Shown here: positions 3,485-47,457 of the stretch, piece by piece
Numbering within the stretch: position 1 is the first letter of the stretch
Layout of the letters: every line of letters begins with the position of its first letter
Source: an uncultured Clostridia bacterium
GTDB taxonomy: Bacteria; Bacillota; Clostridia; TANB77; CAG-508
Assembly: GCA_948664205.1 (NCBI GenBank)
Contig: CAPNDH010000001.1
Span: 30,165-94,164 of the forward strand
DNA length: 64,000 nt
Direction: 5' to 3'
Made by a program: the position numbers and the translations under genes
The notes under the pieces: model-generated
Seen by the model: the letters and a program-made list of their open reading frames with translations, nothing else
What the model was told of the DNA's origin: nothing
Database searches by the model: none

Positions 3485-3505
3485 TATAATTCTCCTTTTA
3501 TTATT

Positions 3506-4621: not shown

Positions 4622-4648
4622 TTTTCTTTCCTTTCCTTTGCTTATTTA

Positions 4649-6508: not shown

Positions 6509-6528
6509 AAAATTTTCCTTTAATTATA

Positions 6529-8505
6529 TTAAATATTATTTTCTTTTTCTAATCCCCACACTCTTTTTAGAAAATCATATCTTTTTTGAAATTCTTCTTT
6601 ATGCCAATCTTTAATTTCTATTAAGTCTCCAATTTCTTTGTGTATACTTTTTATTTCTTCTAAATGTTTTTGTTTTTTCATATTAGAAGTAATATTCTCC
6701 CCATGTACACGATAATAGTTATATGGTTTATTTACATATGCTATATCTCCTTTTATCATAACATTTGCATATACAACCCAATCACCTGCTTGTCTGTACT
6801 TTGTTGCTTTTTCGAATATATCATCATAATTATCTTTTTTTATAATACATGATGAAACATTTGCTATAGTGCAATTTAAAAATGTGTAATTATCTAATTC
6901 ATTTTTTCCATTGTTTATAAAATCTTTATCCCAATGGCCTGTTTTTCTTAAATCAATTTCAGGTTTAATTGTTTTTAAGAATATTTCACCTTGCTTATTT
7001 ATAAAAGCTGTATCAACATATGCAATTCTAATATTATTATTTTTTCTTATTTTATTTAAAAGTACTTTTAACAATCTTTTATCACAATAATCATCTGCTT
7101 CTGCAATCCAAACATAATCACCTTTAGCTAAATCAAATCCTTTTTTCCATTGTTTAAATGCAATACCTGAATTTTCTGTATTATAAACTTTCTTTATATC
7201 TATGTATTTGCTTAACTTTTCTGTAATATTATCTATTAATTCTCTGCTATTATCTTTAGAGCAATCATCTAATATTATTAATTCATTTATCTTTTCTTTT
7301 TGATTTAATATACTATATATTCTTTGAACTAAATAATCTTCATAATTATAATTTGGAACAACTACTGATACTTTAATGTCTTTATCTTTTAACCTTGCTT
7401 GCTTTCTAGCTACTTTTTCCAAATCATCTATGGTTAAATTTTTTCTTATAACATTTTTTGTTTTTAGTTTTGATTTTATTTTTCTTAGCACAGGTATAAC
7501 TTTACCCATAATATTAACACATACTAGATATAAGTTTATTAGTAAAGGACTCTTTGTTCTTAATAACTTTACAGAGCCTAATACACGTAATTTTTCAAGC
7601 CTCGGAAATGCACCTATACATTCTCTACCTTTTTTGCTATTTTCAATGCCTAGCATTTTATTCTTTTTTATAAACAATTTTAAAAATTTTTGTCTTTTGA
7701 AAAATCCTTTTATTTTAATAATTTTATATATATATAGCATAAATACTTGGTGACATATAATTATATCTTTATATTTTTCAAAGTCTTTCAAATCATTTAT
7801 TCTATCAAGACATACTTTTACTGAGTCAAACATATCAAATCTTTTTATAGAAAAATCCGAATTCTGTATAGATGTATTTCTTTGTACATAATAATATTTG
7901 CATTTATCTGTGTATGCAATTTTCTTTGCATGAAGTACACTTGGTATAACAGATGCTACATCTTCATTTATTTTTCCTTCTAAAAACAAATAATCTTCAA
8001 TTAATGATTTTTTAAATAGTTTATTGCAGGCTGATGCACATAGTCCATTATCTATTGAAGCAAGCTTTATATCTTCTTGATTTGGATTGATTCCTTTTTG
8101 AAGCTCACTCATTTCTTTTCCATCTTCATCAACAATTAAAATATTTGTTATTGCAACTTCTGCATTTTCTTTTTCTATTTCATCAATTAATGCTTCATAA
8201 TAATTTTCATCTATATAATCGTCTGAATCAATAAAACCTATAAAATCTGTTTTGGCTTCCATTATTCCTTTATTTCTTGTTGCTGCAAGTCCTAAATTTT
8301 TTTCATTTTTTATTACTTTAACTTTTCCTTCATTTTCCTTTTCTATTTCCTTAATAATTTCAAATGTTTTGTCTGTAGAGCAATCATCAATTGCTATTAT
8401 TTCTATGTTTTTATATGTTTGATTTAATATTGATTCAATTGATTTTTTTACATATTTTTCAACATTATAGCATGGTACAATTACAGTTATTTTTTTATTT
8501 TCCAT
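6529..8505 (-). CDS. Bifunctional GT2 glycosyltransferase (two GT-A domains)
   Basis: 658 aa with two GT2 signatures (ITVIVPCYNVEKY...IDDCSTD and VSVVVPNYNYEDY...LDDCSKDNS). Confidence 0.65.
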   Translation of the reverse strand: MENKKITVIVPCYNVEKYVKKSIESILNQTYKNIEIIAIDDCSTDKTFEIIKEIEKENEGKVKVIKNEKNLGLAATRNKGIMEAKTDFIGFIDSDDYIDENYYEALIDEIEKENAEVAITNILIVDEDGKEMSELQKGINPNQEDIKLASIDNGLCASACNKLFKKSLIEDYLFLEGKINEDVASVIPSVLHAKKIAYTDKCKYYYVQRNTSIQNSDFSIKRFDMFDSVKVCLDRINDLKDFEKYKDIIICHQVFMLYIYKIIKIKGFFKRQKFLKLFIKKNKMLGIENSKKGRECIGAFPRLEKLRVLGSVKLLRTKSPLLINLYLVCVNIMGKVIPVLRKIKSKLKTKNVIRKNLTIDDLEKVARKQARLKDKDIKVSVVVPNYNYEDYLVQRIYSILNQKEKINELIILDDCSKDNSRELIDNITEKLSKYIDIKKVYNTENSGIAFKQWKKGFDLAKGDYVWIAEADDYCDKRLLKVLLNKIRKNNNIRIAYVDTAFINKQGEIFLKTIKPEIDLRKTGHWDKDFINNGKNELDNYTFLNCTIANVSSCIIKKDNYDDIFEKATKYRQAGDWVVYANVMIKGDIAYVNKPYNYYRVHGENITSNMKKQKHLEEIKSIHKEIGDLIEIKDWHKEEFQKRYDFLKRVWGLEKENNI

Positions 8506-10326
8506 TACTTTTCCTTTCTATGTAATATTTCTATCAACCTACGAAAACTACTTTTTTTATATTTTTGTACTTCATCTAGTAATTTAGCTTTTTCATCTAA
8601 TAATTGATTTTTTTCTTTTAGTAATTCGTCTTTTTCTTCATATAATTTGCTTAGTTGTTTATTGTATTTTAATTTTATACCTTCTATACTTATTATAGAC
8701 TTCCATTTATCAGCATAAAAATTATAAACTGAGCTATCTGTTATTTTTTCTTGCCATTTATTTTCTATAGTCTCAAATAAGTTAATGAAATTTAATATAT
8801 TATATTTTTCATATAAATTATCTTTAAATTTTTCCTTATTTTCTATTTTGATATTTTCATCAAATAATTGTTTTAAACTTCTATACATTATAAATTCAAG
8901 TGGAACATTCTCTTCTTTCCATTCTTGATCAAATACGATATATTCTTCTTTCTCATTATCATAAAAAATATTTTGGAATATTAGGTCAATAAATCCATTC
9001 TCTACTATTGTTAGTTTGTTTTTATCTTCATCAGATATTTCAATATCATATTTTGTAAATATATCATTTGGGGTATTATTACTTTGATATTTAAGTTTTT
9101 CTTTTAAGTATATATACCATTTATCTATTTGATTTTCTAATTCTACTAAATCATTTTTGTTTGCTATATTTTTCAAATACTCATCTAATGTAGAAAGTTT
9201 TATATAATTACTACTTATTCTTCCATGTACATCTTCTTCACAAGTGTTGAAACCTAAGTCATTTAATGTTTTAATGTTTTCCTTAATTTCTTCTACGTGA
9301 GAGGTTTCATTTAAATAATAAGCTTCCTTAGTTACATTTTCTTTACCTATTTTTGTAATTATTTTATATTTATTTTTCCTAATATTACTATATTTTATAA
9401 AATTGATATCTTCATTTATACAATTTTCTTCATTAGTAATTTCTATTAAATAACTATTGGTAAATATATCAAATTGTTTATTACTTACTACATTATTTAA
9501 AAATGTAAGTTCACTATACATTATTTCTTCGTCATCATTATAATACAAATTATAATTAAATTTTTCAGGTAAATAACTATCTGTATAAATAGCATCTGTT
9601 AATTTATAATTTGGAACTGGATAATAAAATCTATAGTTAATATCAGATATTTCTTTTAGCATTTCTTTTAATTCATATTTTGTATATAATTTATATTTTT
9701 TTTCAATATAATGTTTATAATTTGTAAATGGAACTTCATCTGTGTTTCTTGTAGAGCCTGCTAAATATTTAACACCTATTTTATTATCTATTGCCAATAA
9801 TATTTTTCCATTATGCTTTAAGTGTTGTTTTGCCCATTCTACCATTTGTTTTAAAGAATTAAAACCTAATTCTTTTGCATATTCTGCTGTTCCTAAAATA
9901 GTAATATAATCATATTTTTGTTCTAATTCTAAATTATTTAAATAAGTAGTTATAATTAATTTTAAATTATTACAATTTGAAAATCTTTCTTCTATACATC
10001 TTGCTTTTTTCTTACTAAATTCAATAGATGTAACTTTTCTGGCCTTCTTTATAAGTTCACCGAGTTACTTCACCATAGTTTGCTCCTATTTCTAGCAACT
10101 CACTATTTTCTTCAAAAGGATACCATTTTATAATATTTGTTGCCATTTCAGAAAATATTTCTACTATTTTTGTTCTTTTGTCTTGCTCAATTATTTTATT
10201 ATAATGTTCTTTTCTATAAGACCTTATATATTTTTCTATATCTTCTTCAAAATTTTTATAAATATCATTATTATAATTGTTCTCTTTTTCATAATTTTTT
10301 TCTTCAATATCAATCATATCTTTCAC
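8505..10326 (-). pseudogene. SAM-dependent methyltransferase with C-terminal coiled-coil, disrupted by a 1-nt frameshift near 10068
   Basis: ORF 10057..10326 ends ...LLEIGANYGEVTR*. Another frame continues GELIKKARKVTSIEFSK...MVEWAKQ into ORF 8505..9845. It aligns with intact paralog 12166..13266 (LEIGAGMGAITEVLCEKCGKVTCVELSK...LKPNGKILIAIENK). Confidence 0.65.
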
Positions 10327-10328
10327 CT

Positions 10329-12155
10329 TTACAGATTTATTTTATCTGTTCTTATAGTACAATTTGCATTATTATTTGAAAAATTTATATTAGAGTATGG
10401 GTCTGTTTTTTTAAGCATTTCTTTCCATTTATTTTTAAAATTGTTACTTTCTTTTTCAAATCTTGCCTTCTTTTCTTCCGTTACTTCATATCCTCTTGTT
10501 TTTGATTCATAGTGCATAAATTCTATATAAGGATTATACACTATTAAGTAACCTTTTTCTCTTAGTTTTAAGCAAAAATCCACATCATTAAATGCTACAG
10601 CAAATTTTTCCTCATCCATATATCCTACTTCTTCATACACACTTTTTCTAGAAAACAAACAAGCACCTGTTACTGCTGATACATTTCTTGTTGTACATTC
10701 TCTTCCTAAATACGCATGTACTCCTTTAGGAGTATTTACAAATAAGTTTGCAGCTAATCCACATATTCCTATGCTTATTCCCGCATGTTGAATAGATTTA
10801 TCTTTGTAATATAGTCTTGCTCCTACTGCTCCTATATCTTTTCTCTCAGCATAACCTATAAACTTTTCTAACCAATTTGGAGTTAGTAGTTTTGTATCGC
10901 TATTTAATTGTACTACATATTCTCCGTTTACATTTTTTACACCAAAGTTTATTATTTTTGAGTAGTTAAAGCCTTTCTCTGGATAGTTAATTATTTTTAT
11001 TTTTTCTATTTTTTCAAGTTCTTTATAATATTTAAATGTTTTCTTTTTTTCGCTGTTATTTTCTATAATTATAATTTCGTAATTTGAGTATGTAGTTAGT
11101 TTTAAAATTGAATTAATACAATTCTTTAATAATTTTACACTGTCTTTATTTGGTATTAATATTGAAACTTTTGGATTACCTTCTATTTCATATTCTACTT
11201 GATATACTCCATGCATATCTCCACCATGTGTTACTTTTGCTTTTAGCCCTTGCCTTTTCAAATGATCTTCTACTGCCTTTTTCCCCGCTTCATATGCATA
11301 TGGTTTTGCAGCTGAAATCATAGCAGTTGAGTCTTCGTGTACTCTCCAATGATATAATATTTTTGGTATATGTACTATTTTATTTGTATTTTCAGCCATT
11401 CTTAATATTATATCAAAGTCTTGTGCCCCATTATATTCATCTCTAACTCCTTCTAACTTATTCATTAATTCTTTTTTGAATACGGCCAAATGTGTAATAT
11501 AATTGTTTGACCTTAATGTATCTATGCTAAAGTCTGGTTTAAAATGTGGGTCATATCTTCTATTTTCATCTCCACTTATTTTGTCTTCATCTGTATATAT
11601 AAATTCTACTTCTGGATTTTTGTTTATAGTTTTTACTAATTCATATAAACAAAAAACTGGAATTAAATCGTCGTGGTCTAATAATGCAATATAATCTCCT
11701 GTTGCCATTTGTATTGCTGAATTTGTATTTCCTGCAATTCCCTTGTTTTCATTTAAAAATTTATATTTTATCCTGTTATCTTTTTTTATAATTTCTTGTA
11801 GTTGTTCATTTTTTTGCATACTTCCATCAGCTAAACAAAGTTCCCAATTTCCATATGTTTGATTTATTAAGCTTTCTACTAATTCTTCAAAATATTTTAT
11901 AGGTGTATTATACATTGGAACTATTAAACTAATTTTAGGTTCTATTTTAAATTTTTCTTGTTTTTGTTTTTCGAGTTCTTCCAAAGTAGGTTCATTATTT
12001 TGAATCCAAATTGTATATCTTTTATTTTTAGAAGTGTTCATATTTCTTCCTAAAATTCTGTTATATAATACTTTAAATATTTTTTGTAGTGTTTTTATAA
12101 TTCCATATTGTTTTAGATATATTTTTAGAATGCTTACCATATTTTTTATTTTCAT
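10329..12155 (-). CDS. Multidomain GT2 glycosyltransferase (paralog of 4649..6508)
   Basis: 608 aa. Shares YTxWIQNxxP...LEExxxQ, INQTYxNWEL, FxPDFSxDxLRSNNYI and NDIDFCxKxR blocks with 4649..6508. Confidence 0.65.
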   Translation of the reverse strand: MKIKNMVSILKIYLKQYGIIKTLQKIFKVLYNRILGRNMNTSKNKRYTIWIQNNEPTLEELEKQKQEKFKIEPKISLIVPMYNTPIKYFEELVESLINQTYGNWELCLADGSMQKNEQLQEIIKKDNRIKYKFLNENKGIAGNTNSAIQMATGDYIALLDHDDLIPVFCLYELVKTINKNPEVEFIYTDEDKISGDENRRYDPHFKPDFSIDTLRSNNYITHLAVFKKELMNKLEGVRDEYNGAQDFDIILRMAENTNKIVHIPKILYHWRVHEDSTAMISAAKPYAYEAGKKAVEDHLKRQGLKAKVTHGGDMHGVYQVEYEIEGNPKVSILIPNKDSVKLLKNCINSILKLTTYSNYEIIIIENNSEKKKTFKYYKELEKIEKIKIINYPEKGFNYSKIINFGVKNVNGEYVVQLNSDTKLLTPNWLEKFIGYAERKDIGAVGARLYYKDKSIQHAGISIGICGLAANLFVNTPKGVHAYLGRECTTRNVSAVTGACLFSRKSVYEEVGYMDEEKFAVAFNDVDFCLKLREKGYLIVYNPYIEFMHYESKTRGYEVTEEKKARFEKESNNFKNKWKEMLKKTDPYSNINFSNNNANCTIRTDKINL

Positions 12156-12165
12156 AATTGGTCTC

Positions 12166-13266
12166 CTAAAACTTTTTTCTAATATTTCTTAATACTTTTG
12201 TAACTTTCCATGATTTAGAATTTTCTATTGCATTTAATGTATTTCTTAGTCCATTTATTTCATCTTGCATAGCGCTTAGTTTATCTTTTTTAGAATAATC
12301 TTTATTATAAAATTTTTCACTTACTTTGCTAATTGGTATTAACCCTGCATTTTCCAAATCTACTTTTGTTTCTATTTTTTCTTGTGATGCTTCTATAAAG
12401 AATGAATTTGCAAAAAAACTAAACATATCATTTTTAATGACTTCTTTATATGCTTTTATCTCATCAAATTCTACTTCTGTACCTTCATAATAATAAGGTT
12501 TATAATTTTCTATTGTTTTAGTAGTTGGCATATATTCATCTGAAAATATTAGCGATGGTAATTTATAATCTGGTAATGGATAATAAAATTTTGTATTACC
12601 TAAACCACATTCTTTTAATATTTCTTCTAATTCTTTTTTTCCAAACGTTTGCACATTGTTTTTATTTATATATCCTGTTATTCCATCATACTTTACATTT
12701 GTATGATCTTCTGGTGCACCTAAAAAATATTTCATACCAAATTTATTTTCTATTGCTATTAATATCTTTCCATTTGGTTTTAGTAGTTTTTTAATATTAT
12801 TCAAAAAATCTATATATGGGTTATCTGTGTTTGTGTATAACACTGCATATTCAAATACTCCTATTAGTGTTATATAATCAAATTTTCTTTCTTTAAAATC
12901 TATATCATTTAGGTTTCCAACTATTATTTCTAAATTTTCTTTATCTTCATTTCTTACTGCTATTGAAGATGCTCTATTTTTAGAAAGTTCTACACAAGTT
13001 ACCTTACCACATTTTTCACAAAGTACCTCTGTTATTGCTCCCATTCCAGCTCCTATTTCTAATACTTCTGAGCCTTCTTTAAAAGGATACCAATTTAATA
13101 TATTTTTCCTTATTGGAGTTAAATGGTAAAATACTGGCCAACGAATATCATTTTCAAATACCTTGTCCATATCTTTATATTTTTTAGCATATTCTATAAT
13201 TTCGTTTTCTATATCTCCATCTGAATATAGGTCTTGTCCTTTATAAAAATCGTAATTTATCTTCAT
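12166..13266 (-). CDS. Class I SAM-dependent methyltransferase
   Basis: 366 aa with motif I LEIGAGMGAIT and post-I acidic residue. Paralogous to the disrupted 8505..10326. Confidence 0.65.
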   Translation of the reverse strand: MKINYDFYKGQDLYSDGDIENEIIEYAKKYKDMDKVFENDIRWPVFYHLTPIRKNILNWYPFKEGSEVLEIGAGMGAITEVLCEKCGKVTCVELSKNRASSIAVRNEDKENLEIIVGNLNDIDFKERKFDYITLIGVFEYAVLYTNTDNPYIDFLNNIKKLLKPNGKILIAIENKFGMKYFLGAPEDHTNVKYDGITGYINKNNVQTFGKKELEEILKECGLGNTKFYYPLPDYKLPSLIFSDEYMPTTKTIENYKPYYYEGTEVEFDEIKAYKEVIKNDMFSFFANSFFIEASQEKIETKVDLENAGLIPISKVSEKFYNKDYSKKDKLSAMQDEINGLRNTLNAIENSKSWKVTKVLRNIRKKF

Positions 13267-13279
13267 TTAAACTATTCTC

Positions 13280-14500
13280 CTATTTTCTATTTATTTGTAT
13301 TTGTGTTTTCATATCTACAATTCCTACAATTTGTTTTTTAGACATTATTTCGACAAGTATAGCATCATATTTTCTGTCAAACACTTCTAATTCTCCTTCT
13401 TCATTTATCCTTGTGCATCCAAATGAGAACGCATATTTATCTGGTGTTAAAGGAAATACTTGTTTGAATTCTACTATTACTTCTTCTCCTTTTTTGTAAT
13501 TTCCTGTTTCTTTATTTTCAAGCATTGTGTTTGTTCCTAATAATTCTAAACCTCTAAAATCTTTTACAGATACTGCAAATATTGGCTCTTTTACATCTTC
13601 GTTAAATTTTATTTTTAGTTTAATTGTAACTTCTTCATCATTTTCAAATATTTTTACTATTTCATTTTTATTATTTAGTATTTTATAATCTATTATCTCT
13701 GCTTTTCCATTTCCATAGGTTATAAGTTTATCTTCATTATTTTTTTCTTTTTCTTCTTCTTTGTTTTCCTCTATTCCAACAATTATTTTTTTATAAAGTT
13801 CAACTCCATCTTTAACACTTCCATCAAAAACTTTTTCCCCTTCTTTTAAAATAATTGTTCTTGTACAATTTCTTATAATATCACTAATATTGTGTGTTAC
13901 AAAAAGTATTGTTTTTCCTTTTTTCTTAAACTCTTCAAATTTTTTGAAACATTTTAATTGGAACGCCATATCTCCTACTGATAATACTTCATCCACTATT
14001 AATATGTCTGGTTCTACATTTATTGCGCATGCAAATGCTAAACGAGCGAACATTCCTGATGAATATGTTTTTACTGGTTGATATAAGTGGTCTCCTATAT
14101 CTGCAAAATCAATTATTTCTTGTTTTTTATTTTCTATTTCTTCTTTTGTCATTCCCATAACTTGTCCATGTTGATATATGTTTTCTTCTCCTGTTAATTC
14201 AGAATTAAATGCTGTACCTAATTCTAAAAGTGAGCTAATTCTTCCATTTATTTTTATATTGCCTGAATTTGGTACTACTACTCCTGTTATTATTTTTAAA
14301 AGGGTAGATTTACCAGCTCCATTTTTTCCAAGTATTCCTAGCACTTCTCCTTTACTTACATTTAAGTTCAAATTATTTAATGCTTTAAATTCTGTGTGCT
14401 TATTGATTTTTGGAAAAATAGCTTCTAAAAGTCTTGCTTGTTTGCTATTATACATTTTATAACTTTTGGTTAAGTTTTCTATTTCTATAATATTTTCCAT
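13280..14500 (-). CDS. ABC transporter ATP-binding protein, Wzt/TagH/KpsT type, with extra C-terminal domain
   Basis: Walker A GKNGAGKST, signature and Walker B present. About 150 extra C-terminal residues, as in Wzt carbohydrate-binding domains. Confidence 0.8.
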   Translation of the reverse strand: MENIIEIENLTKSYKMYNSKQARLLEAIFPKINKHTEFKALNNLNLNVSKGEVLGILGKNGAGKSTLLKIITGVVVPNSGNIKINGRISSLLELGTAFNSELTGEENIYQHGQVMGMTKEEIENKKQEIIDFADIGDHLYQPVKTYSSGMFARLAFACAINVEPDILIVDEVLSVGDMAFQLKCFKKFEEFKKKGKTILFVTHNISDIIRNCTRTIILKEGEKVFDGSVKDGVELYKKIIVGIEENKEEEKEKNNEDKLITYGNGKAEIIDYKILNNKNEIVKIFENDEEVTIKLKIKFNEDVKEPIFAVSVKDFRGLELLGTNTMLENKETGNYKKGEEVIVEFKQVFPLTPDKYAFSFGCTRINEEGELEVFDRKYDAILVEIMSKKQIVGIVDMKTQIQINRK

Positions 14501-14732
14501 TTGCTTACCTTTCTTTTATATCTTGTTTATGTTCCTGACGGGGACACATCTTTTCCTTGCTCATTCTTTGAGTTTCTGTCGGCGACATATCTTTCCCTCG
14601 GGTCATTTCTTCTGTGATAAGATATGTCCCGCGCCTATTATCTATCTTGCTCTAGTTCCTGACGGGGACACATCTTTTCCTAGGGTCATCTCTTCCGTGA
14701 CAAGATATGTCCCGCGCGGGGTGTTTCTATTA
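14501..14732. repeat. GC-rich nested direct/inverted repeat block between the ABC permease and ATPase genes
   Basis: GTTCCTGACGGGGACACATCTTTTCCT occurs twice (14531, 14655). Each unit pairs GGGGACACATCTT with AAGATATGTCCCGCG. Copy 1 carries an extra nested 40-bp half-copy. Confidence 0.7.
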
Positions 14733-15527
14733 TTATAATACATCTGCGAAATCTTTTTTATTTCTTTTAAATACGTTGTTTCCCCATATGAATAATATAA
14801 TTGTTATTACCCAGAATATTATTGTATATATTCCGTAATTGCCTGTTATTATATTAGTTTCATTTATAAATACTTGCCTCATTCCTGTTACTAAATATGT
14901 GAATGGCATACATTGTAATAATTTTAGTAATGTTTGATGTTCTGAAAGCATACTTAAATTCCATATTATTGGTGTAAACCAGAAAAATAGTTGCATTGCT
15001 ATTCCTAGTAAATTTCCGAAGTCTGGTACTATTGTTGTTATTGCTGATGTAAACCTTGTAAAGGCTATTACAAAGCAATACATTGCAAATATTATATATA
15101 TTAATGTTAATGTATTTGGTGGATTTTTAAATACTATACAAACTCCAATAGCAACAATAAATAAAAATATTCCTACAAAGCTTGATGCCATTATTGATAT
15201 ATTAGGTATTACATCTACTGGAAATACTACTTTTTTTACTAAATAGCTATATTGCCTAATTGATCCACTTGCACTCATTATCATGTCATTTAGAGTTTGC
15301 CACATTGCCATTGCTGGTATAAACCATACTGCATATGGATAGTTCCCGTTACTTCTGGTATTTAATATACTTTCAAATACAATTACATATGTTATCATAA
15401 ACACAAATGGTTGTAAAAATCCCCATATTGCACCTAAGCTTGTACTTGCAAATCTATTTTTAAAATCACTTCTTCCTAATTGCCATACTATTTTTTTATT
15501 CTTCCATAATGTTTTTAAATATTCCAT
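14733..15527 (-). CDS. ABC-2 type polysaccharide/teichoic acid export permease (Wzm/TagG-like)
   Basis: 264 aa with 6 TM segments and an ABC-2 family profile. Directly upstream of the ATPase gene. Confidence 0.75.
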   Translation of the reverse strand: MEYLKTLWKNKKIVWQLGRSDFKNRFASTSLGAIWGFLQPFVFMITYVIVFESILNTRSNGNYPYAVWFIPAMAMWQTLNDMIMSASGSIRQYSYLVKKVVFPVDVIPNISIMASSFVGIFLFIVAIGVCIVFKNPPNTLTLIYIIFAMYCFVIAFTRFTSAITTIVPDFGNLLGIAMQLFFWFTPIIWNLSMLSEHQTLLKLLQCMPFTYLVTGMRQVFINETNIITGNYGIYTIIFWVITIILFIWGNNVFKRNKKDFADVL

Positions 15528-15631
15528 TTATATTTCTCTCCTATAACAAATAATAAAGTCCTTTTTGGCTAGGTTAATTTTATATTTAATTGGCTTAATT
15601 GTCAAGGTTTTAAGGGGTATTAAATAGTAAA

Positions 15632-15664
15632 ATATCCTAATTAGTTATGTGCTAATTAGGATAT
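15632..15664 (-). terminator. Perfect 13-bp inverted repeat (ATATCCTAATTAG-n7-CTAATTAGGATAT), then T-tract; candidate terminator
   Basis: Seen directly in the sequence. Lies between the YfhO-like gene stop and the ABC-operon promoter (TTGACA-17-TAAAAT at about 15577-15605, minus strand). Confidence 0.5.
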
Positions 15665-15681
15665 TTTATTTATTTAATTAA

Positions 15682-18048
15682 TTATTCTTCATTTTTCTTC
15701 TTTTTCTCTTTAATAAAGAACATTGTAGTTAAACTAATTAAACCAATTATTGTCAAAATACTTCCCTCTTTCATTTTTGGTGTAGTATATCTAAGTTCAA
15801 TTTCATGTTCTCCTTCTGGTACAACAATTCCAACAAATCCGTAATCTACTTTATAAGTATCTACCAAATTATTATCAATATATGCATTCCATCCTTCTTC
15901 TTTCGGAATTGATATCATCAATAAGCCACTACCATTAGCAGATACATTCCCTGATATTTTTGTTTGACTTATTAAGTTGAATTCACTTACTTTTGCAATT
16001 GATTTCTCATCAATATCTAAATTTTCATTAACAATAGCATAATCATATAATTTTTTAGTTTTTTCTTCTTGAGTTAATCCAATATATTCATCTTCACTTA
16101 TAGTTTTGTTATACCACTTAGCAACAGAATTAGTAGCAGTGTTTCTATAAATATATATTTCACCAATTTTATTTATTTGTTCTATTCCTTTTTCATTAAT
16201 AATTTCCTTAGACAATATATATTTAGAGTTTGTTAGATATAGCGCTTGTAAATCAGAGTCGTCTTTAAGTGAGAAGATTTTATAATGACTTGCTGCATAT
16301 GCATTAGGATAAATATTTTTATAAAATGCATCTGCATCTGGATTAATAGTACTATTATACCAAACAACTGATGAATTTTGTTCTATAAACGAATCTCCTA
16401 AATACGAAAAATTAGTATATGTCTTTTCTATTCTATAAAATGATTTATCATTTTCTTTTATAAAATTGATTGCCTTTCCTGTATCATCTGTCTGGTTAAA
16501 TTTATTATCCCATGTAAGTGTATAATAATCTGATGATATTGTTTTCCTGTTATTAGTTGTAACATAATGATCATAACATGTATTTAACAAAATAATAATC
16601 AAAAAAGAATACATAAAAATTTTTGAATATTTATTTCTTTTATTAATAAAAAATAAAGCTACAAAACCAATTATTAACAAAAATAATATTCTATATATCA
16701 TAGGTTGATTTGTATCTGGTAATCTTATAACAGAGCAATAGAAGCTTGCTAAGCTTAGTATTAAGCTTAATATTAACCCTAACATATTTATTCTATTTTT
16801 TCTTATTACATTTTCCCAAACAATACCAACTATTAAAGCTAAAAATGGTATTATTGCATATGTATATCTATATTCTGGCTCTACAAATGCATTTAATATT
16901 AACCCTGGCACTCCATTAAATATAAAAAAGTATAATGCAATTATTTTTAATGTAAAAAATATATAATCTTTTTTCGTATTTGCTTTCTTAAAATCATATA
17001 TAATCCATTGTATTAGGAAAAAGAATATAAATATTGTACAAAATAATTCTGGCAAGCCATAATACACACCTTGTTGTGTGAACATATATTTATTCAAATT
17101 ATTAGACATTAACCTGCTAATTCTCATATTTATATATTCAAAATTAAAAGAATTTGTAAATGCATTACATATTTTTAAAAATATACTCTCTCCTGCACTA
17201 GATAATCTAGATGAAGTTGTTACTACATGATAAGCAGCAGGAACAAATATTATTCCTGATAACAATATTCCTGTAACAACCCCATAAATACATTTTCCCC
17301 AATTTTTACACAATTCTTTTATTTCTACTTTTTTGGTTATATAAAAATATCTAAAAATAAAATATAATGCACTAATTAGTAAAATCATATAGCCTACATA
17401 GTAACTATATATTAATAAAAGAGCTGTACTTAATGCTAGATATATTATACTTTTTTTGTTTTTGTTTGCTAAAAAATATTCAATCGCACACAACATTATC
17501 ATCATATAAAAGCAAGAAGTACCTAAAAAGAAATGTTGTCCCCATAAGAAAATATATCCATTCATAGCACTTAAATAAGACGCTAAACAAATTGATAATT
17601 TATCTTTCAAAAAGTATGACATAAATTTTCTGCTTAATATATATATTGCTATTATTTTAAATATCTGCATCCACACTAGTAAATATGCAACCTTATCTAC
17701 TCCTGATATAATTCCTGCCAATACTAGCAAAATAGCAAAAATATCAAATGTCCATGTAGTTGAATTAAAAATACTAGTTCCTAATCCATAATTAAAATTC
17801 CATACAGAAAAAGTTCCTTTTTTAAGTCCTAATACTTCATTCACGTAGTATGGATAATATTGGTCTAATGTATCTGAACCTGCATCACGATACATATAAT
17901 ATAATTTTCCTATTATAAAACTTTTAAATATAAGTAGTAACGAAGCAATTAAAACAATTGCAAAAAATAATTCAATTATTATATTTTTATTATCCTTTAT
18001 ATATTGTAAAAATTTTGTTTTTTTATTATTCTTCATTTTTTCTCCCAT
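15682..18048 (-). CDS. YfhO-like polytopic membrane (GT-C type) glycosyltransferase
   Basis: 788 aa with more than 12 TM helices and a C-terminal extracytoplasmic domain. In context with GtrA/GtrB-like genes. Confidence 0.5.
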   Translation of the reverse strand: MGEKMKNNKKTKFLQYIKDNKNIIIELFFAIVLIASLLLIFKSFIIGKLYYMYRDAGSDTLDQYYPYYVNEVLGLKKGTFSVWNFNYGLGTSIFNSTTWTFDIFAILLVLAGIISGVDKVAYLLVWMQIFKIIAIYILSRKFMSYFLKDKLSICLASYLSAMNGYIFLWGQHFFLGTSCFYMMIMLCAIEYFLANKNKKSIIYLALSTALLLIYSYYVGYMILLISALYFIFRYFYITKKVEIKELCKNWGKCIYGVVTGILLSGIIFVPAAYHVVTTSSRLSSAGESIFLKICNAFTNSFNFEYINMRISRLMSNNLNKYMFTQQGVYYGLPELFCTIFIFFFLIQWIIYDFKKANTKKDYIFFTLKIIALYFFIFNGVPGLILNAFVEPEYRYTYAIIPFLALIVGIVWENVIRKNRINMLGLILSLILSLASFYCSVIRLPDTNQPMIYRILFLLIIGFVALFFINKRNKYSKIFMYSFLIIILLNTCYDHYVTTNNRKTISSDYYTLTWDNKFNQTDDTGKAINFIKENDKSFYRIEKTYTNFSYLGDSFIEQNSSVVWYNSTINPDADAFYKNIYPNAYAASHYKIFSLKDDSDLQALYLTNSKYILSKEIINEKGIEQINKIGEIYIYRNTATNSVAKWYNKTISEDEYIGLTQEEKTKKLYDYAIVNENLDIDEKSIAKVSEFNLISQTKISGNVSANGSGLLMISIPKEEGWNAYIDNNLVDTYKVDYGFVGIVVPEGEHEIELRYTTPKMKEGSILTIIGLISLTTMFFIKEKKKKNEE

Positions 18049-42078: not shown

Positions 42079-42225
42079 ATTTTCACCTTATTTTTAAATT
42101 TGTATTTTTAGTTATTTATTAATTTAATACCTACTTATACATTTTAACTCTTTTATTATAATTTATCAAGTCCGAATTGTCAACATAAATTAAGCAAAAA
42201 ATTAAAATACACAGTAGGAATATTC

Positions 42226-42963
42226 CTACTGTGCAAATTGTGAAGTAATCCATTTTATCACTTGTCCTTTTATAGCAAAATACTCTTCTTTTTCAAATTG
42301 CATATTTGCAATACAATATCTACGATTTGATATATGTGAACAAAACATACATTCATGCAAAGAATTCGAATCTTGTATAAAAAACGAATTGCTAATTTTA
42401 GCTGAACATATTACATTATAACTATTAGAACAACTACCTGAATCATCTACTCTAATACAATAGCTACAGTTCGAGCTTCTTTGACATGCTATTACATATT
42501 CCGAATCTCCACATCCATCTGTAAATATTACATTTTTACTTTTTCTACAATCTTGACTTCTATATACATTTTCACAGTTATATATTGTGTCACTTTTCGA
42601 AACATTAATACTGTCATAAACTCGTTCGGTTGTAGTGTAATTTATTTTATTCCATAATTTTATAATTTCATCAAGAGAACTTATTTCCTTTTTAGGTCTC
42701 ATCCATCCCTTATATTCATCATATTTTTCCATATTTTCTTGAGTTATGTATTTATTAGAATTAATTGAAGAAGCCCATGTTTCAACTCCTGTAACTGCAT
42801 CTATAACTTTATTTGGAAGTTTTATATCAAATGCAAATTCTGATAATACCTCTTCCAAACTTAATAAACACTTTTGTTCAAAAATTTCCATAAAAATTTC
42901 ATCTACCACACTTTTACATTGTTTTTCATTCATTTTATCTCTCCTATTATTATTCATTTTCAA
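42226..42963 (-). CDS. Cys-rich hypothetical protein
   Basis: 245 aa. The C-terminal half has degenerate repeats (CxxSxNCSYC / SGSCSNSYNVIC / ECMFCSH). 14-nt overlap with the upstream ATPase gene. Terminator hairpin 42210-42233. Confidence 0.35.
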   Translation of the reverse strand: MKMNNNRRDKMNEKQCKSVVDEIFMEIFEQKCLLSLEEVLSEFAFDIKLPNKVIDAVTGVETWASSINSNKYITQENMEKYDEYKGWMRPKKEISSLDEIIKLWNKINYTTTERVYDSINVSKSDTIYNCENVYRSQDCRKSKNVIFTDGCGDSEYVIACQRSSNCSYCIRVDDSGSCSNSYNVICSAKISNSFFIQDSNSLHECMFCSHISNRRYCIANMQFEKEEYFAIKGQVIKWITSQFAQ

Positions 42964-44836
42964 AATTCATTCTTTTTCTTGAAGCTGATGTCTTTGTCAT
43001 TATATCTCTTAATGAATTTGTTGTTTCTATATTAAAAATCTTTTTCTTTTGTATATTTTCCTTTTTATTCATATCTTTATTCTTATTTATTTTTCTTTTT
43101 ATTCTAGGTACTGGTATAAAATCTAAAGTTTTGCCTTTAAAAGCTGATAACATTCTTCCATCTCTTCCTATCCTTGCTATACATTCCCTATCATTTAATT
43201 CTGTAAGCATTTTTATTCTTGTAATATGTGAATTTTTTACTGCAACTTCCATTTGCATATTGCTTTCTAGTAATATTGCATCCATTCTTGAAACTCTAAA
43301 AATAAAGTAATTTATAACATTTGTAAATATTGCTTTTTGCAAATTTTCGCTAATTTGTTCAAAATATTGACCTGCTAAAATTAATGAAAGATTATATTTT
43401 CTCGCTTCTGCTAGAAATCTAGTTATTATGGGATTTTCTATAATAGAGACTTCGTCTATAACCAATATAATATGTTCATTAAATGTATGTGATTGTACTA
43501 ATTGTAAAATTTGTTGCATTGCAAAACCTGCTATTGTTTTTGTTATATTTAGGCCTAGTGTCATTTGGTCTAATGATAGTACTGTAATAAAGTTTTGTTC
43601 TATTTCTTCTTTAATATTTTTTATTTCAGATATATTATTTATTGCTGGTAATAGTTGCATTTCATCTATAAAAGAAATTATAGGTGATATTGCTTCTTGA
43701 TATGATTTTGTTTTTAGTTCATTAAAATCTACTCTAAAAAATTCTATTATATTGGGTTGTATTACATCTTCAACTTCTCTTATAATTTTATTTCTGTATT
43801 CTATTTCTATTAATAACTTTCGTAAACTTATTAAATTAAATTCTCCTTTTTCTAGTAATAAATGTATACTATACCTTAATACCCTTTCTAATTTTGAATT
43901 ATATTTGTCTGCTATAATATTTTTAAATATAGACATAATAGATTCCGTGGAAGATAATATATCTTCTGCTGAATTCATAAATAAGTTTATACTACTATCC
44001 TCTGTTTTAAAGTCAATTACATTTGCACTTTCTAATCCTCCAATATCTTCTTCCATGGCTGCATGTGGGTCAATTACAACTATTTTATACTTTAATTTAT
44101 TATTACTATTCATACTTAAGTTTTTTATAATCGAGCTTATAAATTTAGATTTTCCTGTTCCACTTGCCCCTACTACAATAGAATGTTTTGCAAAATCGTA
44201 ATTTTTATAGTTTAAGTATAATTCTTCTTGCAAATATGGAAATACGTTCGCTTTTAGTAACGCATTTTCTTTATCACTACTTAATATGTTTATAACTTTT
44301 TTACTATCTAAATATTTTGCTTCACTTTTTTGGTAGAAAAACCTTATATGCGTACCAAAGTCAATACTTATAAATTTATATATTTCATTATTTCCTATTA
44401 CTTTTCTCTTTATTATTTTTCCTTTTTCATCTTTAAAATAAAAATTGGTTGTTGATAAGTAATTATTATATTTATATGGGTAAAATGATATTTTTATATT
44501 TTTTAGTTTTTGTAGTTTTCTTGTTTCATTTTTATCATATACATCTAATAATGTTTTATAGTTACGTGTAAGTAAATATGGAATTCCTAAGCTTGATATT
44601 TCCCTTAATTCTATATCTGTTTTTTTTATTAAAAATTCGCCTAAATCGCCTAATATTGGCGGTAATATTCTTGTAGTTTCTATAAAATATCTTATATAAT
44701 TGTTTTCAATATGTATCCATAGATTCCATTTTTTTAACATTCCATTTATTTTAGATATTTTATATATTAAATTTAGCCATTCCTCACTTTTAACATGTGA
44801 TGATGTTAAACATATTTCAAATACATTTTCCTTCAT
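42950..44836 (-). CDS. HerA/FtsK-like (DUF87-type) P-loop ATPase; start moved to the internal Met with RBS AAGGAAAA
   Basis: Walker A VVGASGTGKSKF followed by VVIDPHAAME (a HerA-like xxDPHGEY block). Walker B HIILVIDEVS, LAGQYFEQ motif, basic C-terminal tail. Confidence 0.5.
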   Translation of the reverse strand: MKENVFEICLTSSHVKSEEWLNLIYKISKINGMLKKWNLWIHIENNYIRYFIETTRILPPILGDLGEFLIKKTDIELREISSLGIPYLLTRNYKTLLDVYDKNETRKLQKLKNIKISFYPYKYNNYLSTTNFYFKDEKGKIIKRKVIGNNEIYKFISIDFGTHIRFFYQKSEAKYLDSKKVINILSSDKENALLKANVFPYLQEELYLNYKNYDFAKHSIVVGASGTGKSKFISSIIKNLSMNSNNKLKYKIVVIDPHAAMEEDIGGLESANVIDFKTEDSSINLFMNSAEDILSSTESIMSIFKNIIADKYNSKLERVLRYSIHLLLEKGEFNLISLRKLLIEIEYRNKIIREVEDVIQPNIIEFFRVDFNELKTKSYQEAISPIISFIDEMQLLPAINNISEIKNIKEEIEQNFITVLSLDQMTLGLNITKTIAGFAMQQILQLVQSHTFNEHIILVIDEVSIIENPIITRFLAEARKYNLSLILAGQYFEQISENLQKAIFTNVINYFIFRVSRMDAILLESNMQMEVAVKNSHITRIKMLTELNDRECIARIGRDGRMLSAFKGKTLDFIPVPRIKRKINKNKDMNKKENIQKKKIFNIETTNSLRDIMTKTSASRKRMNFENE

Positions 44837-44912
44837 TTTTATTTTTTCCTTTTTTGCTTTTATTATAGCATCTTTTGACATAAAAAAACTGACATTTTTA
44901 TTTCAAAAAAAG

Positions 44913-45707
44913 TCAGTTTTCTATTGGTACTAAAAAATCTGTAATTTCATCATGATAAAATTCAATCTCTGGTAAATCTCTAAAATTATATTTACAGCTT
45001 GGCAAAAAATCTGTATAAAACATTTTTGATACTTTTTGTATTTCATTTGCTCTGTGTGAATCTATTCTTATTTGTATATATTTACTTTTAGGTATTATTT
45101 TTTTTATTAATTCCTCTTTTTCTTCTTCATATAATATCCAATATGCTTTTATATGTAACCTTTCTTTATCTTTATATTCTACCATTCCATATACTGGTTT
45201 TTGATTATATTTTTTTTCAATCTCTTTAAAAAACTTTGGAGCATCTTGTTCTATTTCTTCATTTGTTGTTGATTTATATGTTCCATATAATATCATTTTT
45301 TCTTTTTCTATAATTTTGTATTCTATATTTTTATTTAGTTCCCTTTCCTCATTAAAGTGCAATTTTGTATATATTTTTAATTTATCAGGCTTCTTTTTTA
45401 CTTGGCTTGGTTTTATTCCATGAAATTTTTCAAATGCTCTAGAAAATGATATTGAATTATTATATTGATATTTTATGGCCACATCTATTATTTTTTCATT
45501 ATTTATAAATAATTCTTCTCCTGCATTTGATAATCTTCTATTCCTTACATATTCTGAGATAGAAATATTACATATTACAGAAAATATCTTTCGAAAAGTA
45601 TATTCATTTACTCCTATCATTTTTGCAAGTTCTTTATTATCTATTTTTTCTTCTAAATTATTTTCTATATATTCTATTATTTCATTTAGTTGTTTATAAA
45701 TATTCAT
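44913..45707 (-). CDS. AraC/XylS-family regulator with C-terminal GyrI-like effector domain
   Basis: N-terminal HTH_AraC (ISEYVRNRRLSNAGEEL...), C-terminal GyrI-like fold. Terminator hairpin overlapping the stop at 44885-44920. Confidence 0.7.
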   Translation of the reverse strand: MNIYKQLNEIIEYIENNLEEKIDNKELAKMIGVNEYTFRKIFSVICNISISEYVRNRRLSNAGEELFINNEKIIDVAIKYQYNNSISFSRAFEKFHGIKPSQVKKKPDKLKIYTKLHFNEERELNKNIEYKIIEKEKMILYGTYKSTTNEEIEQDAPKFFKEIEKKYNQKPVYGMVEYKDKERLHIKAYWILYEEEKEELIKKIIPKSKYIQIRIDSHRANEIQKVSKMFYTDFLPSCKYNFRDLPEIEFYHDEITDFLVPIEN

Positions 45708-45811
45708 ATTTTTATTCCTTATTTGTTTTTTATTACTTTATATCATATTTCTTTTAATTTTCATAGCTTTTTTATTAATTTATAAAAAATAATATAAAGC
45801 TTGTACAAAAA

Positions 45812-45863
45812 TGAGTCAAAAGGGACAGATGACGCATTTGAAAACGTCCCCAATGCGTCATCC
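45812..45863 (-). repeat. Family-3 element abutting the stop codon of 45867..46304
   Basis: ATGAGTCAAAAGGGACAGATGACGCATTTGAAAACGTCCCCAATGCGTCATCC. 11-bp stem GATGACGCATT/AATGCGTCATC plus GGGGAC/GTCCC and a U-tract on the minus strand. Confidence 0.6.
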
Positions 45864-45866
45864 TTT

Positions 45867-46304
45867 TTATCTTCTACGACAACACCATGTTGTTTGACAT
45901 CCATTTGCATCCCTTACGTTTACTGTTGCTGTATTGTTATTATTGCAGTTACAATTACAATTGTTATTGTTGTTTAAAATATTTGCAACTCTTGTTGCTA
46001 TGTTTTGCATATCTGCATTTGATAATTGAACTTCATTGTTATTATTGTTATTTTCTCTACATGGGCATGTTCTTCTACATCTGTTAAAAAACAATTCTAC
46101 TATCCATGCTGTTATATATGCTATTATTGTGTATACAATTACAAAAATCAAAAAACTTGCATCAAATGCTGCAAATGCTACTATTAAGTATATTGCGAAA
46201 AATGTTAATGCTGTTAATATTGGGCATCTTAATATTTTTTCTATAACAATTGCAAGTATTATTGTTGCAATTGGGAGTGCAAAGTATATTAATAATGTAT
46301 TCAT
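45867..46304 (-). CDS. Membrane protein with Asn/Cys-rich low-complexity tail
   Basis: 145 aa with 3 TM helices, then NNNNNNEVQL...NNNNNCNCNCNNNN...CCRRR. Confidence 0.3.
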   Translation of the reverse strand: MNTLLIYFALPIATIILAIVIEKILRCPILTALTFFAIYLIVAFAAFDASFLIFVIVYTIIAYITAWIVELFFNRCRRTCPCRENNNNNNEVQLSNADMQNIATRVANILNNNNNCNCNCNNNNTATVNVRDANGCQTTWCCRRR

Positions 46305-46533
46305 ATTAATCTCTCCTCTTATTTTATATTCTGTTATATAGTATGCTTTTTTACTTTTTTGTGTGCATTAATTGTAGCTATCATTAGTTTCAATTAATAG
46401 TTTATAAGTAAATATGCATTGTAACAGATATTAATGTATTTTACATAAATTGTTGATTTTATTATGTTTTTGTTGTATAATATAAGTATGAAACCTATTA
46501 TGAAATTTGCCACAACAAAGAGGAGGATTCATT

Positions 46534-46692
46534 ATGTATAATGCAGGGCTTTACATGGGAACATCTAAACATTTTGATTCGAAAAGAGTGTCCGAGATCC
46601 GCAATCGTTACTTTTATGCACGTCAGCTCGAGCCTGCTCGTGAGAACATGCGGAAATTAAGGGAGGAAAAAGCGCTTAGGGCGAAGCAGTAA
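46534..46692 (+). CDS. Small basic protein (52 aa) with anomalous GC/codon usage; start at the ATG after RBS AAGAGGAGG
   Basis: Promoter TTGATT-17-TATAAT at 46453-46481. Strong RBS. Terminator hairpin 46713-46742. The coding region is about 50% GC in an AT-rich genome. Confidence 0.35.
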   Translation: MYNAGLYMGTSKHFDSKRVSEIRNRYFYARQLEPARENMRKLREEKALRAKQ

Positions 46693-46749
46693 TTACCTGC
46701 TATACGGCAACAAAAACCAATGGTTATTTCCATTGGTTTTTTGTTAATT

Positions 46750-47457
46750 TTAATATTCTACTTTTACCAAATACAAAGCATAAGGTGGAAGTGTTTTTCC
46801 TGCTCTTGTTCTATCTTTTGATTCTATAATACTAGTTATTTCTTCTGGTTTTATTTTTCCTAAACCCACATCTACCAGTGTTCCTGATATTATTCTTACC
46901 ATATTATATAAAAAACCATTTCCTGTAAGTTCTATTTTTATTCTTTCTCCATCTTCTATTATATTTGTTTTATATATAATTCTTACACTACTTTTACTAC
47001 TTGTTCCACTTGATTTAAAACCTTTAAAGTCGTGTTCTCCTTCGAAATATTTAATTGCTTTTTTCATTTCTTCTACATTTAGCTTTACTGGAACGTAATA
47101 TTCTAAGTTTCTATATATTGCAGACCCTTGTTTTCCATTATTTATAATATATCTATATGTTTTTTGTTTACAATTATATCTGCTATGAAATCTTTCTTCT
47201 ACTTCTTCTGCTTTTTGTATTCTTATAGATTTTTTTAGTTTTGAGTTTATTGCAACTGCAAATTTTTCTATTGGCAGAGTACTATTTGTTTTAAAGTTTG
47301 CAACTTGAGCAATAGCATGTACTCCAGCATCTGTTCTACCCGATGCTGTTAGGTCTACTTGTTCACCTGTTATTAGTTCTATTGCTCTTTCTATTTCTCC
47401 TTGTATATTTAGTTTTGTTGGCTGTTTCTGCCAACCGATTAAAATCTTTTCCATCAT
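46750..47457 (-). CDS. truA: tRNA pseudouridine(38-40) synthase
   Basis: 235 aa, ...ASGRTDAGVHAIAQVANF... catalytic Asp motif. Confidence 0.85.
   Translation of the reverse strand: MMEKILIGWQKQPTKLNIQGEIERAIELITGEQVDLTASGRTDAGVHAIAQVANFKTNSTLPIEKFAVAINSKLKKSIRIQKAEEVEERFHSRYNCKQKTYRYIINNGKQGSAIYRNLEYYVPVKLNVEEMKKAIKYFEGEHDFKGFKSSGTSSKSSVRIIYKTNIIEDGERIKIELTGNGFLYNMVRIISGTLVDVGLGKIKPEEITSIIESKDRTRAGKTLPPYALYLVKVEY

Follow-up and report, generated by a model that had tools for sequence, protein, structure and literature searches.

A conserved three-gene unit of a Rob-like regulator, a soluble HerA/FtsK/TrwB-superfamily ATPase and a repeat protein in uncultured gut Firmicutes

A stretch of 64 kb from the genome of an uncultured Clostridia bacterium (contig CAPNDH010000001.1; hereafter the window) carries on its minus strand three co-oriented open reading frames (ORFs), which encode an AraC-type regulator, a P-loop ATPase and a repeat protein that we call the partner. 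The first-pass annotation of this DNA had described ATPase and partner as a two-gene operon; both ORFs are present, but the unit comprises three genes, as the araC-type gene lies directly upstream of the ATPase gene in 69 of 80 related loci. The unit is best explained as ligand-inducible and chromosomal, and we tentatively read it as a cytoplasmic machine in which a ring ATPase acts on, or together with, a non-enzymatic repeat protein, a possibility that we hold well short of conviction. Neither the ATPase superfamily nor the general idea of pairing a HerA-like motor with a dedicated partner is new. Measured against the family libraries and the literature searched, the partner family, its predicted fold, its paralogue arrays, the phyletic pattern and the operator-promoter element appear to be new.

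With one genome scanned per species, a relative of the partner is encoded in 392 genomes, and the partner homologues form 1326 protein clusters; the pairing is thus not a peculiarity of a single genome. Neighbourhoods were compared for the best 80 of the 392 loci, all of which come from metagenome-assembled genomes (MAGs) of uncultured gut Clostridia, Bacilli or Erysipelotrichaceae-type bacteria. The order araC-ATPase-partner is kept in the 69 loci mentioned above, most of the others being cut by contig ends, and the genes that flank the unit differ widely from locus to locus. Divergence proceeds in parallel in all three genes: relative to the window, the median identity is 65% for the partner, 56% for the AraC-type regulator and 50% for the ATPase, which makes the partner the most conserved of the three. 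The pairing, which the first-pass annotation had not recognised, is therefore real and conserved, and no description of it was found in the literature searched. It also extends to divergent bacteria: where partners share 26–41% identity, an ATPase homologue is encoded immediately upstream (L166, L169, L173, L175 and L176; L-numbers label related loci in other genomes). The regulators at divergent bacterial loci are different or absent (MerR in L175, HTH_23 in L173), and because the pair recurs there with other regulators or none, it appears to be older than its association with the regulator. At L173 one ATPase gene is followed by six partner paralogues. The same locus (1–1074; 2602–8726) holds a TnpB-like gene (Cas12f1-like_TNB) close to this module, and a seventh downstream gene encodes a protein of similar length (248 residues) that is not a member of the family by hidden Markov model.

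The partner family is hugely expanded in DPANN archaea. A HMMER scan of 1.84 billion representative proteins returned 410 partner relatives, among them proteins of about 525–540 residues that carry two units, and by hhalign the single unit matches half of an archaeal double unit (E 1e-40). NCBI labels two double-unit members as proteins of Micrarchaeota or Micrarchaeia, and the family has archaeal surroundings, with NMD3 and with HTH_10 and Lrp/AsnC regulators as neighbours; two further neighbouring genes presumably encode a replication factor C small subunit and a TrmB-type regulator, recognised by eye from their sequences. Tandem partner arrays at archaeal loci adjoin one ATPase homologue, often together with an HTH_10 regulator, and the archaeal ATPase is 29% identical to that of the window across the motor domain (residues 227–576, E 1e-37). 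On one Micrarchaeia contig ten consecutive double-unit genes are followed by a convergent gene for a 723-residue ATPase. The first five of these genes overlap by 4 nucleotides (nt), the ten copies fill about 16 kb, and the paralogues are of equal length and 30–56% identical to each other. Elsewhere (L121, L109, L135, L126) adjacent pairs of single-unit genes (about 252 and 256 residues) alternate with fused double units (about 530 residues). Fusion and fission of the units look to be still going on, and the alternation points to a dimer or pseudo-dimer as the functional unit. Overall, the array pattern fits assembly subunits better than a single effector.

Several archaeal loci carry additional genes (L097, L113 and L124 in cluster 13; L112, L134, L135 and L138 in cluster 3). 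At some of the archaeal loci a membrane-anchored PLD-like protein (PLDc_2, E 3e-27) is encoded directly upstream of the partner array, and at others a PALP-family enzyme with a long C-terminal extension adjoins the ATPase; both may be lineage-specific additions to the system.

The AlphaFold2 model of the partner (predicted local distance difference test, pLDDT, 82; predicted TM-score, pTM, 0.84) predicts an alpha/beta domain at the N-terminus, an all-beta repeat domain after it and a helix at the C-terminus. Foldseek returned no match to this model in the PDB (best E 2.3) or BFVD, and profile searches of PDB sequences gave E 0.4 at best. The partner belongs to no family in Pfam, NCBIfam or PADLOC, and even at E values up to 1 no Pfam family was common to more than 2 of the 30 members of partner alignment A4 or more than 1 of the 38 members of partner alignment A1. 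The repetitive nature of its C-terminal half, seen in the first-pass annotation, is borne out by a Ser/Cys autocorrelation of 0.38 at lags 6 and 12, compared with −0.01 ± 0.10 in shuffled sequences. Hydrophobic residues recur with a period of 12, and column conservation shows that the repeat region ends in a family signature, [DE]CMFCx[HN]...YCIANMQ[FY]xxEEY. The repeat may resemble the narrow 12-residue beta-helices lined by Ser, Cys or Ala, such as that of the beetle antifreeze protein (TCTxSxxCxxAx). The likeness lies in the small residues at every sixth and the hydrophobic residues at every twelfth position of the partner, whereas the partner is cytoplasmic, most of its Cys are not conserved, and neither its sequence nor Foldseek gives a match to a solved beta-helix. 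Likewise, no hexapeptide, pentapeptide, beta-helix or zinc-ribbon model matches it, and it has no conserved Cys4 sites.

The description of the partner as Cys-rich applies to the window, where it has 13 Cys, and is peculiar to this lineage. Among bacterial homologues conservation extends to C198 and C207 alone; of 38 sequences, 9 have Ser at position C195 and 12 have Asn at H200, the other Cys columns hold Ser, Ile, Val or other residues in relatives, and the archaeal family has Ala in place of C207. A zinc-ribbon array is disfavoured because the cysteines are for the most part not conserved. With M1, C207 and N210 as the only invariant residues, nothing points to catalysis, which agrees with the non-enzymatic appearance first remarked on. 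Also as first described, the partner has no transmembrane segment (maximum 19-residue hydropathy 0.87). The homologues are without signal peptide, uniform in build and strongly conserved, and a conserved C-terminal motif and helix are common to all partners. Informative domain fusions of the family were not found. The 215-residue protein labelled P0257 joins the N-terminus of a NAD-dependent epimerase to the last 108 residues of a partner (79% identity) and is probably an assembly chimera and not a real fusion.

In the ATPase, whose residues we number in the 643-residue open frame, the Walker A motif, the DPH block (VVIDPHA, residues 268–274) and the Walker B motif are present as the first-pass annotation had it, and they are invariant in alignment A2, which holds 30 homologues of 39–91% identity. 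The invariant positions of Walker A are G238, S240, G241, G243, K244, S245 and K246, and R494 and K495 downstream of Walker B are likewise invariant. Because these Walker and Arg/Lys residues do not vary, the ATPase looks catalytically intact and active. Its best Pfam match is TrwB_AAD_bind (PF10412; residues 231–531, 33.5 bits against a cut-off of 20.5, E 2.8e-8); DUF87 (26.7 bits against 23.2, E 7e-6) and TraG-D_C also match. The FtsK_SpoIIIE model (PF01580) covers residues 218–272 only and stays below its cut-off (21 bits against 24), as do NCBIfam HerA_antiphage, by far (15.7 bits against 800), and the type VII secretion system EssC/EccC model TIGR03925 (20.7 bits against 346.55). The PADLOC model mad8 matches the motor domain only (E 7.7e-16). 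HerA sequences in the PDB align only around Walker A and along a segment downstream of Walker B (RKY motif), and the sequence distance from the ATPase to every solved structure is very large.

The AlphaFold2 model of the ATPase was built on a shallow alignment (65–100% identity) and reached a pLDDT of 74.7. In Foldseek searches with this model HerA-NurA, TrwB, VirB4, Cagbeta, Sir2-HerA and DUF4297-HerA were about equally close (E 1e-8 to 1e-5); the comparison with TrwB (1e9s) gave E 4e-8 and a target-normalised TM-score of 0.58–0.62. The model predicts a beta-rich N-terminal region and, within the motor domain at about residues 308–410, a helical insertion that would resemble the all-alpha domain of coupling proteins. 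No transmembrane segment was detected (maximum 19-residue hydropathy 1.31, at the Walker B strand), and the same holds for six homologues. The basic C-terminal tail noted earlier is confirmed; it is rich in Lys/Arg or Lys/Ala in the window ATPase and the L166, L171 and L141 homologues and missing in those of L173, L175 and L121. Near its C-terminus the ATPase also carries a conserved motif, F616...S632..R635. ATPase and partner have no domain in common (hhalign probability 0.2%). The initial assignment as HerA/FtsK-like is thus supported in the wider form HerA/FtsK/TrwB-like, and we read the ATPase as a separate, soluble branch of that superfamily.

The ATPase gene falls into two ORFs, beside an intact partner gene, in 13 of the 80 related MAG loci (L008, L012, L027, L030, L031, L033, L035, L036, L038, L048, L054, L057 and L075). 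The split follows a first fragment of about 240–250 residues in L038, L048 and L054, at an identical offset in L038 and L048. These could be assembly errors, pseudogenes or frameshifts.

The regulator matches Pfam HTH_18 with 54 bits (cut-off 33.6) and GyrI-like with 38.1 bits (cut-off 26). RobA_TF matches over the full length with 57.9 bits, below the cut-off of 380, and we therefore do not regard the protein as an orthologue of Rob itself. Between regulator and ATPase genes lies a palindrome, CTGAC-N18-GTCAG, which is unique within the window (0.00 matches expected). The form CTGA(C/T)-N18-(A/G)TCAG occurs near the ATPase start in 70 of 75 loci, with a spacer of exactly N18 in 69, and in 55 of these 69 the palindrome is followed, at a distance of exactly 21 nt, by a TATAAT-like hexamer (consensus tg.TAtAAT). 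By this spacing the right arm falls at about −38 to −34, over the −35 position, and the ATPase promoter combines a good extended −10 box with no good −35 hexamer; class II activator-dependent promoters are laid out in this way. In the window the palindrome can also form a hairpin with a U-run after it (dG −13.9, z −4.3), and the first-pass annotation had taken it for an araC terminator. The spacer at distant loci lacks self-complementarity although arms and spacing persist, so the conserved feature is a DNA site and not an RNA structure, and the element is better assigned to the ATPase promoter. The palindrome is the probable operator, to which the regulator would bind. The arrangement is like that of MarA/SoxS/Rob class II promoters in its Rob-like regulator, a presumed site overlapping −35, a good −10 and a poor −35. 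It differs in that the site, where binding is predicted, is palindromic, its two 5-bp arms separated by 18 bp, and not an asymmetric marbox. The promoter-like site upstream of the araC-type gene (Table 1) is weak, because the region has as many such sites as chance predicts.

The most likely start of the partner gene is the ATG at 42933, because the homologues have 235–237 residues and an AGGAGA lies 7 nt upstream. The ATPase stop codon reads at 42952–42950, with the AGGAGA downstream of it, which leaves 16 nt between the two genes and no overlap. The 14-nt overlap first proposed would need an upstream TTG start. For the ATPase, M16 (ATG 44836) is the most likely start and 628 residues the more likely length compared with 643, since the homologues mostly have 627–628 residues and the conserved −10 box falls within the first 15 codons of the longer frame. 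The terminator of the operon, first placed at 42210–42233, is confirmed as a strong terminator 3' of the partner gene.

Table 1 Coordinates in the window of the genes, motifs and regulatory sites of the three-gene unit (ATPase residues refer to the 643-residue open frame)
Feature	Position	Strand	Basis or remark
Promoter-like site TTGACT-17-TATATT upstream of araC-type gene	45791..45819	-	consensus scan, 10/12 matches
Rob-like regulator, 264 residues: AraC-type double helix-turn-helix, then GyrI-like ligand-binding domain	44913..45707	-	Pfam
Palindrome CTGAC-N18-GTCAG, probable operator	44889..44916	.	left arm contains araC stop codon
Extended -10 box TGcTATAAT of ATPase-partner operon	44862..44870	-	read from sequence
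Soluble HerA/FtsK/TrwB-superfamily ATPase, probably 628 residues	42950..44836	-	open frame to 44881 = 643 residues
Walker A GASGTGKSK, residues 238-246	44144..44170	-	invariant residues in alignment A2
Walker B ILVIDE, residues 471-477	43451..43471	-	D476, E477 invariant
Probable ribosome-binding site AGGAGA of partner gene	42940..42945	-	read from sequence; 7 nt upstream of ATG 42933
Partner protein, probably 235 residues	42226..42933	-	homologue lengths, ribosome-binding site; frame 42226-42963 if TTG start
Hexapeptide/dodecapeptide Ser/Cys-ladder repeat region, residues 106-212	42298..42618	-	periodicity at lags 6, 12, 18
Intrinsic terminator of operon	42208..42235	-	12-bp stem + T-run; dG -18.8 kcal/mol, z -7.75

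Taken together, we picture the unit as follows. The Rob-like AraC/GyrI regulator would bind the palindrome, with the right arm over the −35 position, and a small molecule sensed by the regulator would switch on the ATPase-partner operon. The ATPase would be a soluble ring motor of the HerA/FtsK/TrwB kind with its catalytic residues intact, and the non-enzymatic repeat protein would be its dedicated client or co-factor. The partner may be a structural building block that associates with itself, its basic unit being a dimer or pseudo-dimer, and that the motor assembles, remodels or moves; it would not be a nuclease-type effector. In some lineages the basic tail may tether the motor to DNA. Archaellins with ArlI and pilins with PilB are cases in which an assembly ATPase is encoded beside paralogous structural subunits, and by analogy the present loci likewise place one ATPase gene beside tandem, diverged paralogues of equal length in one operon. 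The analogy ends with the proteins themselves: the ATPase is of another superfamily, the partners have neither signal peptide nor transmembrane segment, and there is no gene for a membrane platform.

A number of points speak against such a machine. That ATPase and partner touch each other is something we infer, and the predicted fold of the partner rests on one single AlphaFold2 model. Remodelling of protein polymers is not known from HerA/FtsK-type motors, and the soluble superfamily members with an established role act on DNA. The number of partner units per ATPase (1, 4, 6, 10, 12 or 20) varies so much that no fixed stoichiometry results. At one locus of Dojkabacteria (candidate phylum WS6) the partner gene stands alone, and no ATPase gene lies within 8 kb of it. 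Finally, the sequence at the palindrome forms a terminator-like hairpin here and may have a purely terminator role in close relatives.

At the same Dojkabacteria locus (L180/L181, 1096–6065) four tandem genes for proteins of about 354–388 residues without Pfam match, possibly paralogues, lie upstream of the partner gene, and genes for an M50 peptidase and a DHH phosphoesterase follow the four.

Among other explanations, one that we consider unlikely is that the ATPase works like a coupling protein and feeds the repeat proteins as secreted or transferred substrates to a channel encoded elsewhere, which could matter for symbiont-host contact in DPANN archaea, the candidate phyla radiation (CPR) and relatives. 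The ATPase indeed resembles TrwB/VirD4/TraD proteins in its best Pfam match, which is above the gathering score, in a TM-score of about 0.6 when normalised to the TrwB chain and in the predicted helical insertion; tandem paralogue arrays adjoin the ATPase, the partner family occurs in Micrarchaeota and Dojkabacteria, and the C-terminal motif and helix of the partners would suit this role. However, the ATPase lacks the N-terminal membrane anchor of these proteins, no VirB4, VirB6, relaxase or other channel gene was seen in any neighbourhood examined, and the partners, in their lack of signal peptides, their common build and their strong conservation, are unlike typical effectors. A related idea, that the ATPase is a decayed coupling protein of a conjugative element and the partner unrelated cargo, is already largely refuted and seems very improbable. 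It could draw on the TrwB_AAD_bind and TraG-D_C matches and on a tblastn search of plasmids with the ATPase, which gave weak matches to 'type IV secretion system DNA-binding domain' proteins at 22–23% identity; remote plasmid matches of the ATPase number only four. Yet no integrase, relaxase or type IV secretion system gene is close by, neither the window nor the related loci hold a relaxase or type IV secretion system gene, the partner matches no plasmid in PLSDB, and the three genes, their ATPase motifs intact, are found together again in about 70 species in housekeeping surroundings. With no context of conjugation or of an integrative and conjugative element, an origin from a remnant of such an element or from a plasmid was rejected; the module is chromosomal and does not look mobile.

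The first-pass annotation had suggested an accessory or defence module, and a HerA-plus-effector system against phages, with the ATPase sensing or processing invading DNA and the partner as effector or sensor, still deserves weighing, although we regard it as quite unlikely; conjugation and defence are both poorly supported. In HerA-NurA, Sir2-HerA and DUF4297-HerA, too, a soluble hexameric P-loop motor of this superfamily has a dedicated partner whose gene adjoins its own, these complexes rank with the best matches to the ATPase in structure and sequence, and the closest solved relatives by sequence and fold include the Sir2-HerA and DUF4297-HerA proteins. Paralogue arrays and dedicated regulators occur in conflict systems. 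The mad8 match points the same way. MADS is an eight-gene operon (10.1101/2023.03.30.534895); membership in it was rejected, as the mad8 match is confined to the motor domain and no other mad-like genes were found among the Pfam-annotated neighbours in the window and related loci, which were not scanned with the PADLOC mad models. In contrast to the partners in the HerA complexes, the partner here has no nuclease or NADase identity, no conserved catalytic residues and no PADLOC model, and the ATPase scores far below the HerA_antiphage cut-off. The setting is not a defence island: neighbours in related loci are housekeeping genes (for MutL, MiaA, aspartyl-tRNA synthetase, rpoBC, ClpB, serine hydroxymethyltransferase and MurB). 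The partner is also nearly as conserved as TruA (62–64% identity in loci where TruA has 73–76%), which indicates strong purifying selection and not an arms race. A tblastn search of 50,697 phage records gave no match, and IMG/VR holds no partner relative and one remote relative of the ATPase only; a phage origin was rejected on these results. Matches in PHROG were phrog_5156 (E 5e-16) and phrog_15341 (E 4.7e-4).

Soluble superfamily members of known role act on DNA, and the unit might instead be a xenobiotic-induced DNA-handling motor with a non-catalytic cap or DNA-mimic partner, for example one that removes or protects DNA-bound targets by analogy with pentapeptide-repeat proteins. The basic tails of the window, L166, L171 and L141 ATPases, the drug-sensor-type regulators (AraC with GyrI-like here, MerR in L175) and the repeat architecture of the partner would agree with this. 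The tail is missing in L173, L175 and L121, however, no nuclease or topoisomerase gene is consistently linked, and arrays of ten double-unit paralogues are hard to explain in this way. The partner is moreover not consistently acidic, its pI ranging from 4.5 to 9.6 across homologues, on which ground a DNA mimic was rejected. We consider DNA handling quite improbable. What remains of our expectation falls to the case that neither the proposed machine nor any of these four alternatives is right.

The region of the unit has a G+C content of 22–27%, which matches that of its surroundings. The genes that flank it have housekeeping roles: recognising them by eye, we assign SpoIVB, a methyltransferase, TypA and S1 to one flank and TruA and CdaA to the other. 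Of the flanking families, S1, PseudoU_synth_1, DAC and DUF2651 are confirmed by Pfam calls on identical contigs. No Rfam family was found between 36 and 52 kb of the window. Directly after the operon terminator lies a perfect sigma-70 consensus promoter, TTGACA-17-TATAAT (12/12; 42155–42183, minus strand), which presumably drives the S1 protein gene. Just upstream of the araC-type gene a DUF2651 membrane protein is encoded (45867–46304, minus strand; Pfam E 9e-7), whose C-terminal tail contains many Asn and Cys (NNNNNCNCNCNNNN ... TTWCCRRR); three related loci (L059, L063 and L073) have a homologue close to truA. Between the DUF2651 gene and truA there is a 61-residue ORF on the plus strand (46507–46692), and the G+C content rises locally to 0.33 at 46500–47000, where Rfam gives no match. 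In L001–L004, which represent one abundant gut species, the region downstream of the module (8787–16000) encodes large strain-variable proteins (491–1186 residues, no Pfam match) and contains flagellin-like and CLIPPER-domain genes; it looks hypervariable between strains.

The pairing concerns a partner family of more than 1300 clusters that is covered by no model in Pfam, NCBIfam or PADLOC, for which the libraries searched hold no solved or predicted structural relative, and that is tightly and anciently linked to a distinct branch of HerA/FtsK/TrwB motors. In gut Firmicutes the unit has one copy per gene and a sharply defined regulatory site, and an inducing ligand would point to its physiological role. 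On the one Micrarchaeia contig the ten double units over about 16 kb beside a single ATPase gene are a large investment for a small genome (the protein is listed on a contig of up to 1.1 Mb). If the motor acts on the repeat protein, this would be a new kind of client for a motor family known mainly for pumping DNA. It is conceivable, although we think it doubtful, that the unit is a categorically new cellular machine in which a soluble ring motor assembles or moves a new class of beta-repeat protein, that is, a new cytoplasmic scaffold or transport system. Such a machine, with a new partner fold, would occur in uncultured gut Firmicutes and DPANN archaea as well as in at least one CPR bacterium, and would possibly be tied to a small-cell or host-dependent way of life.

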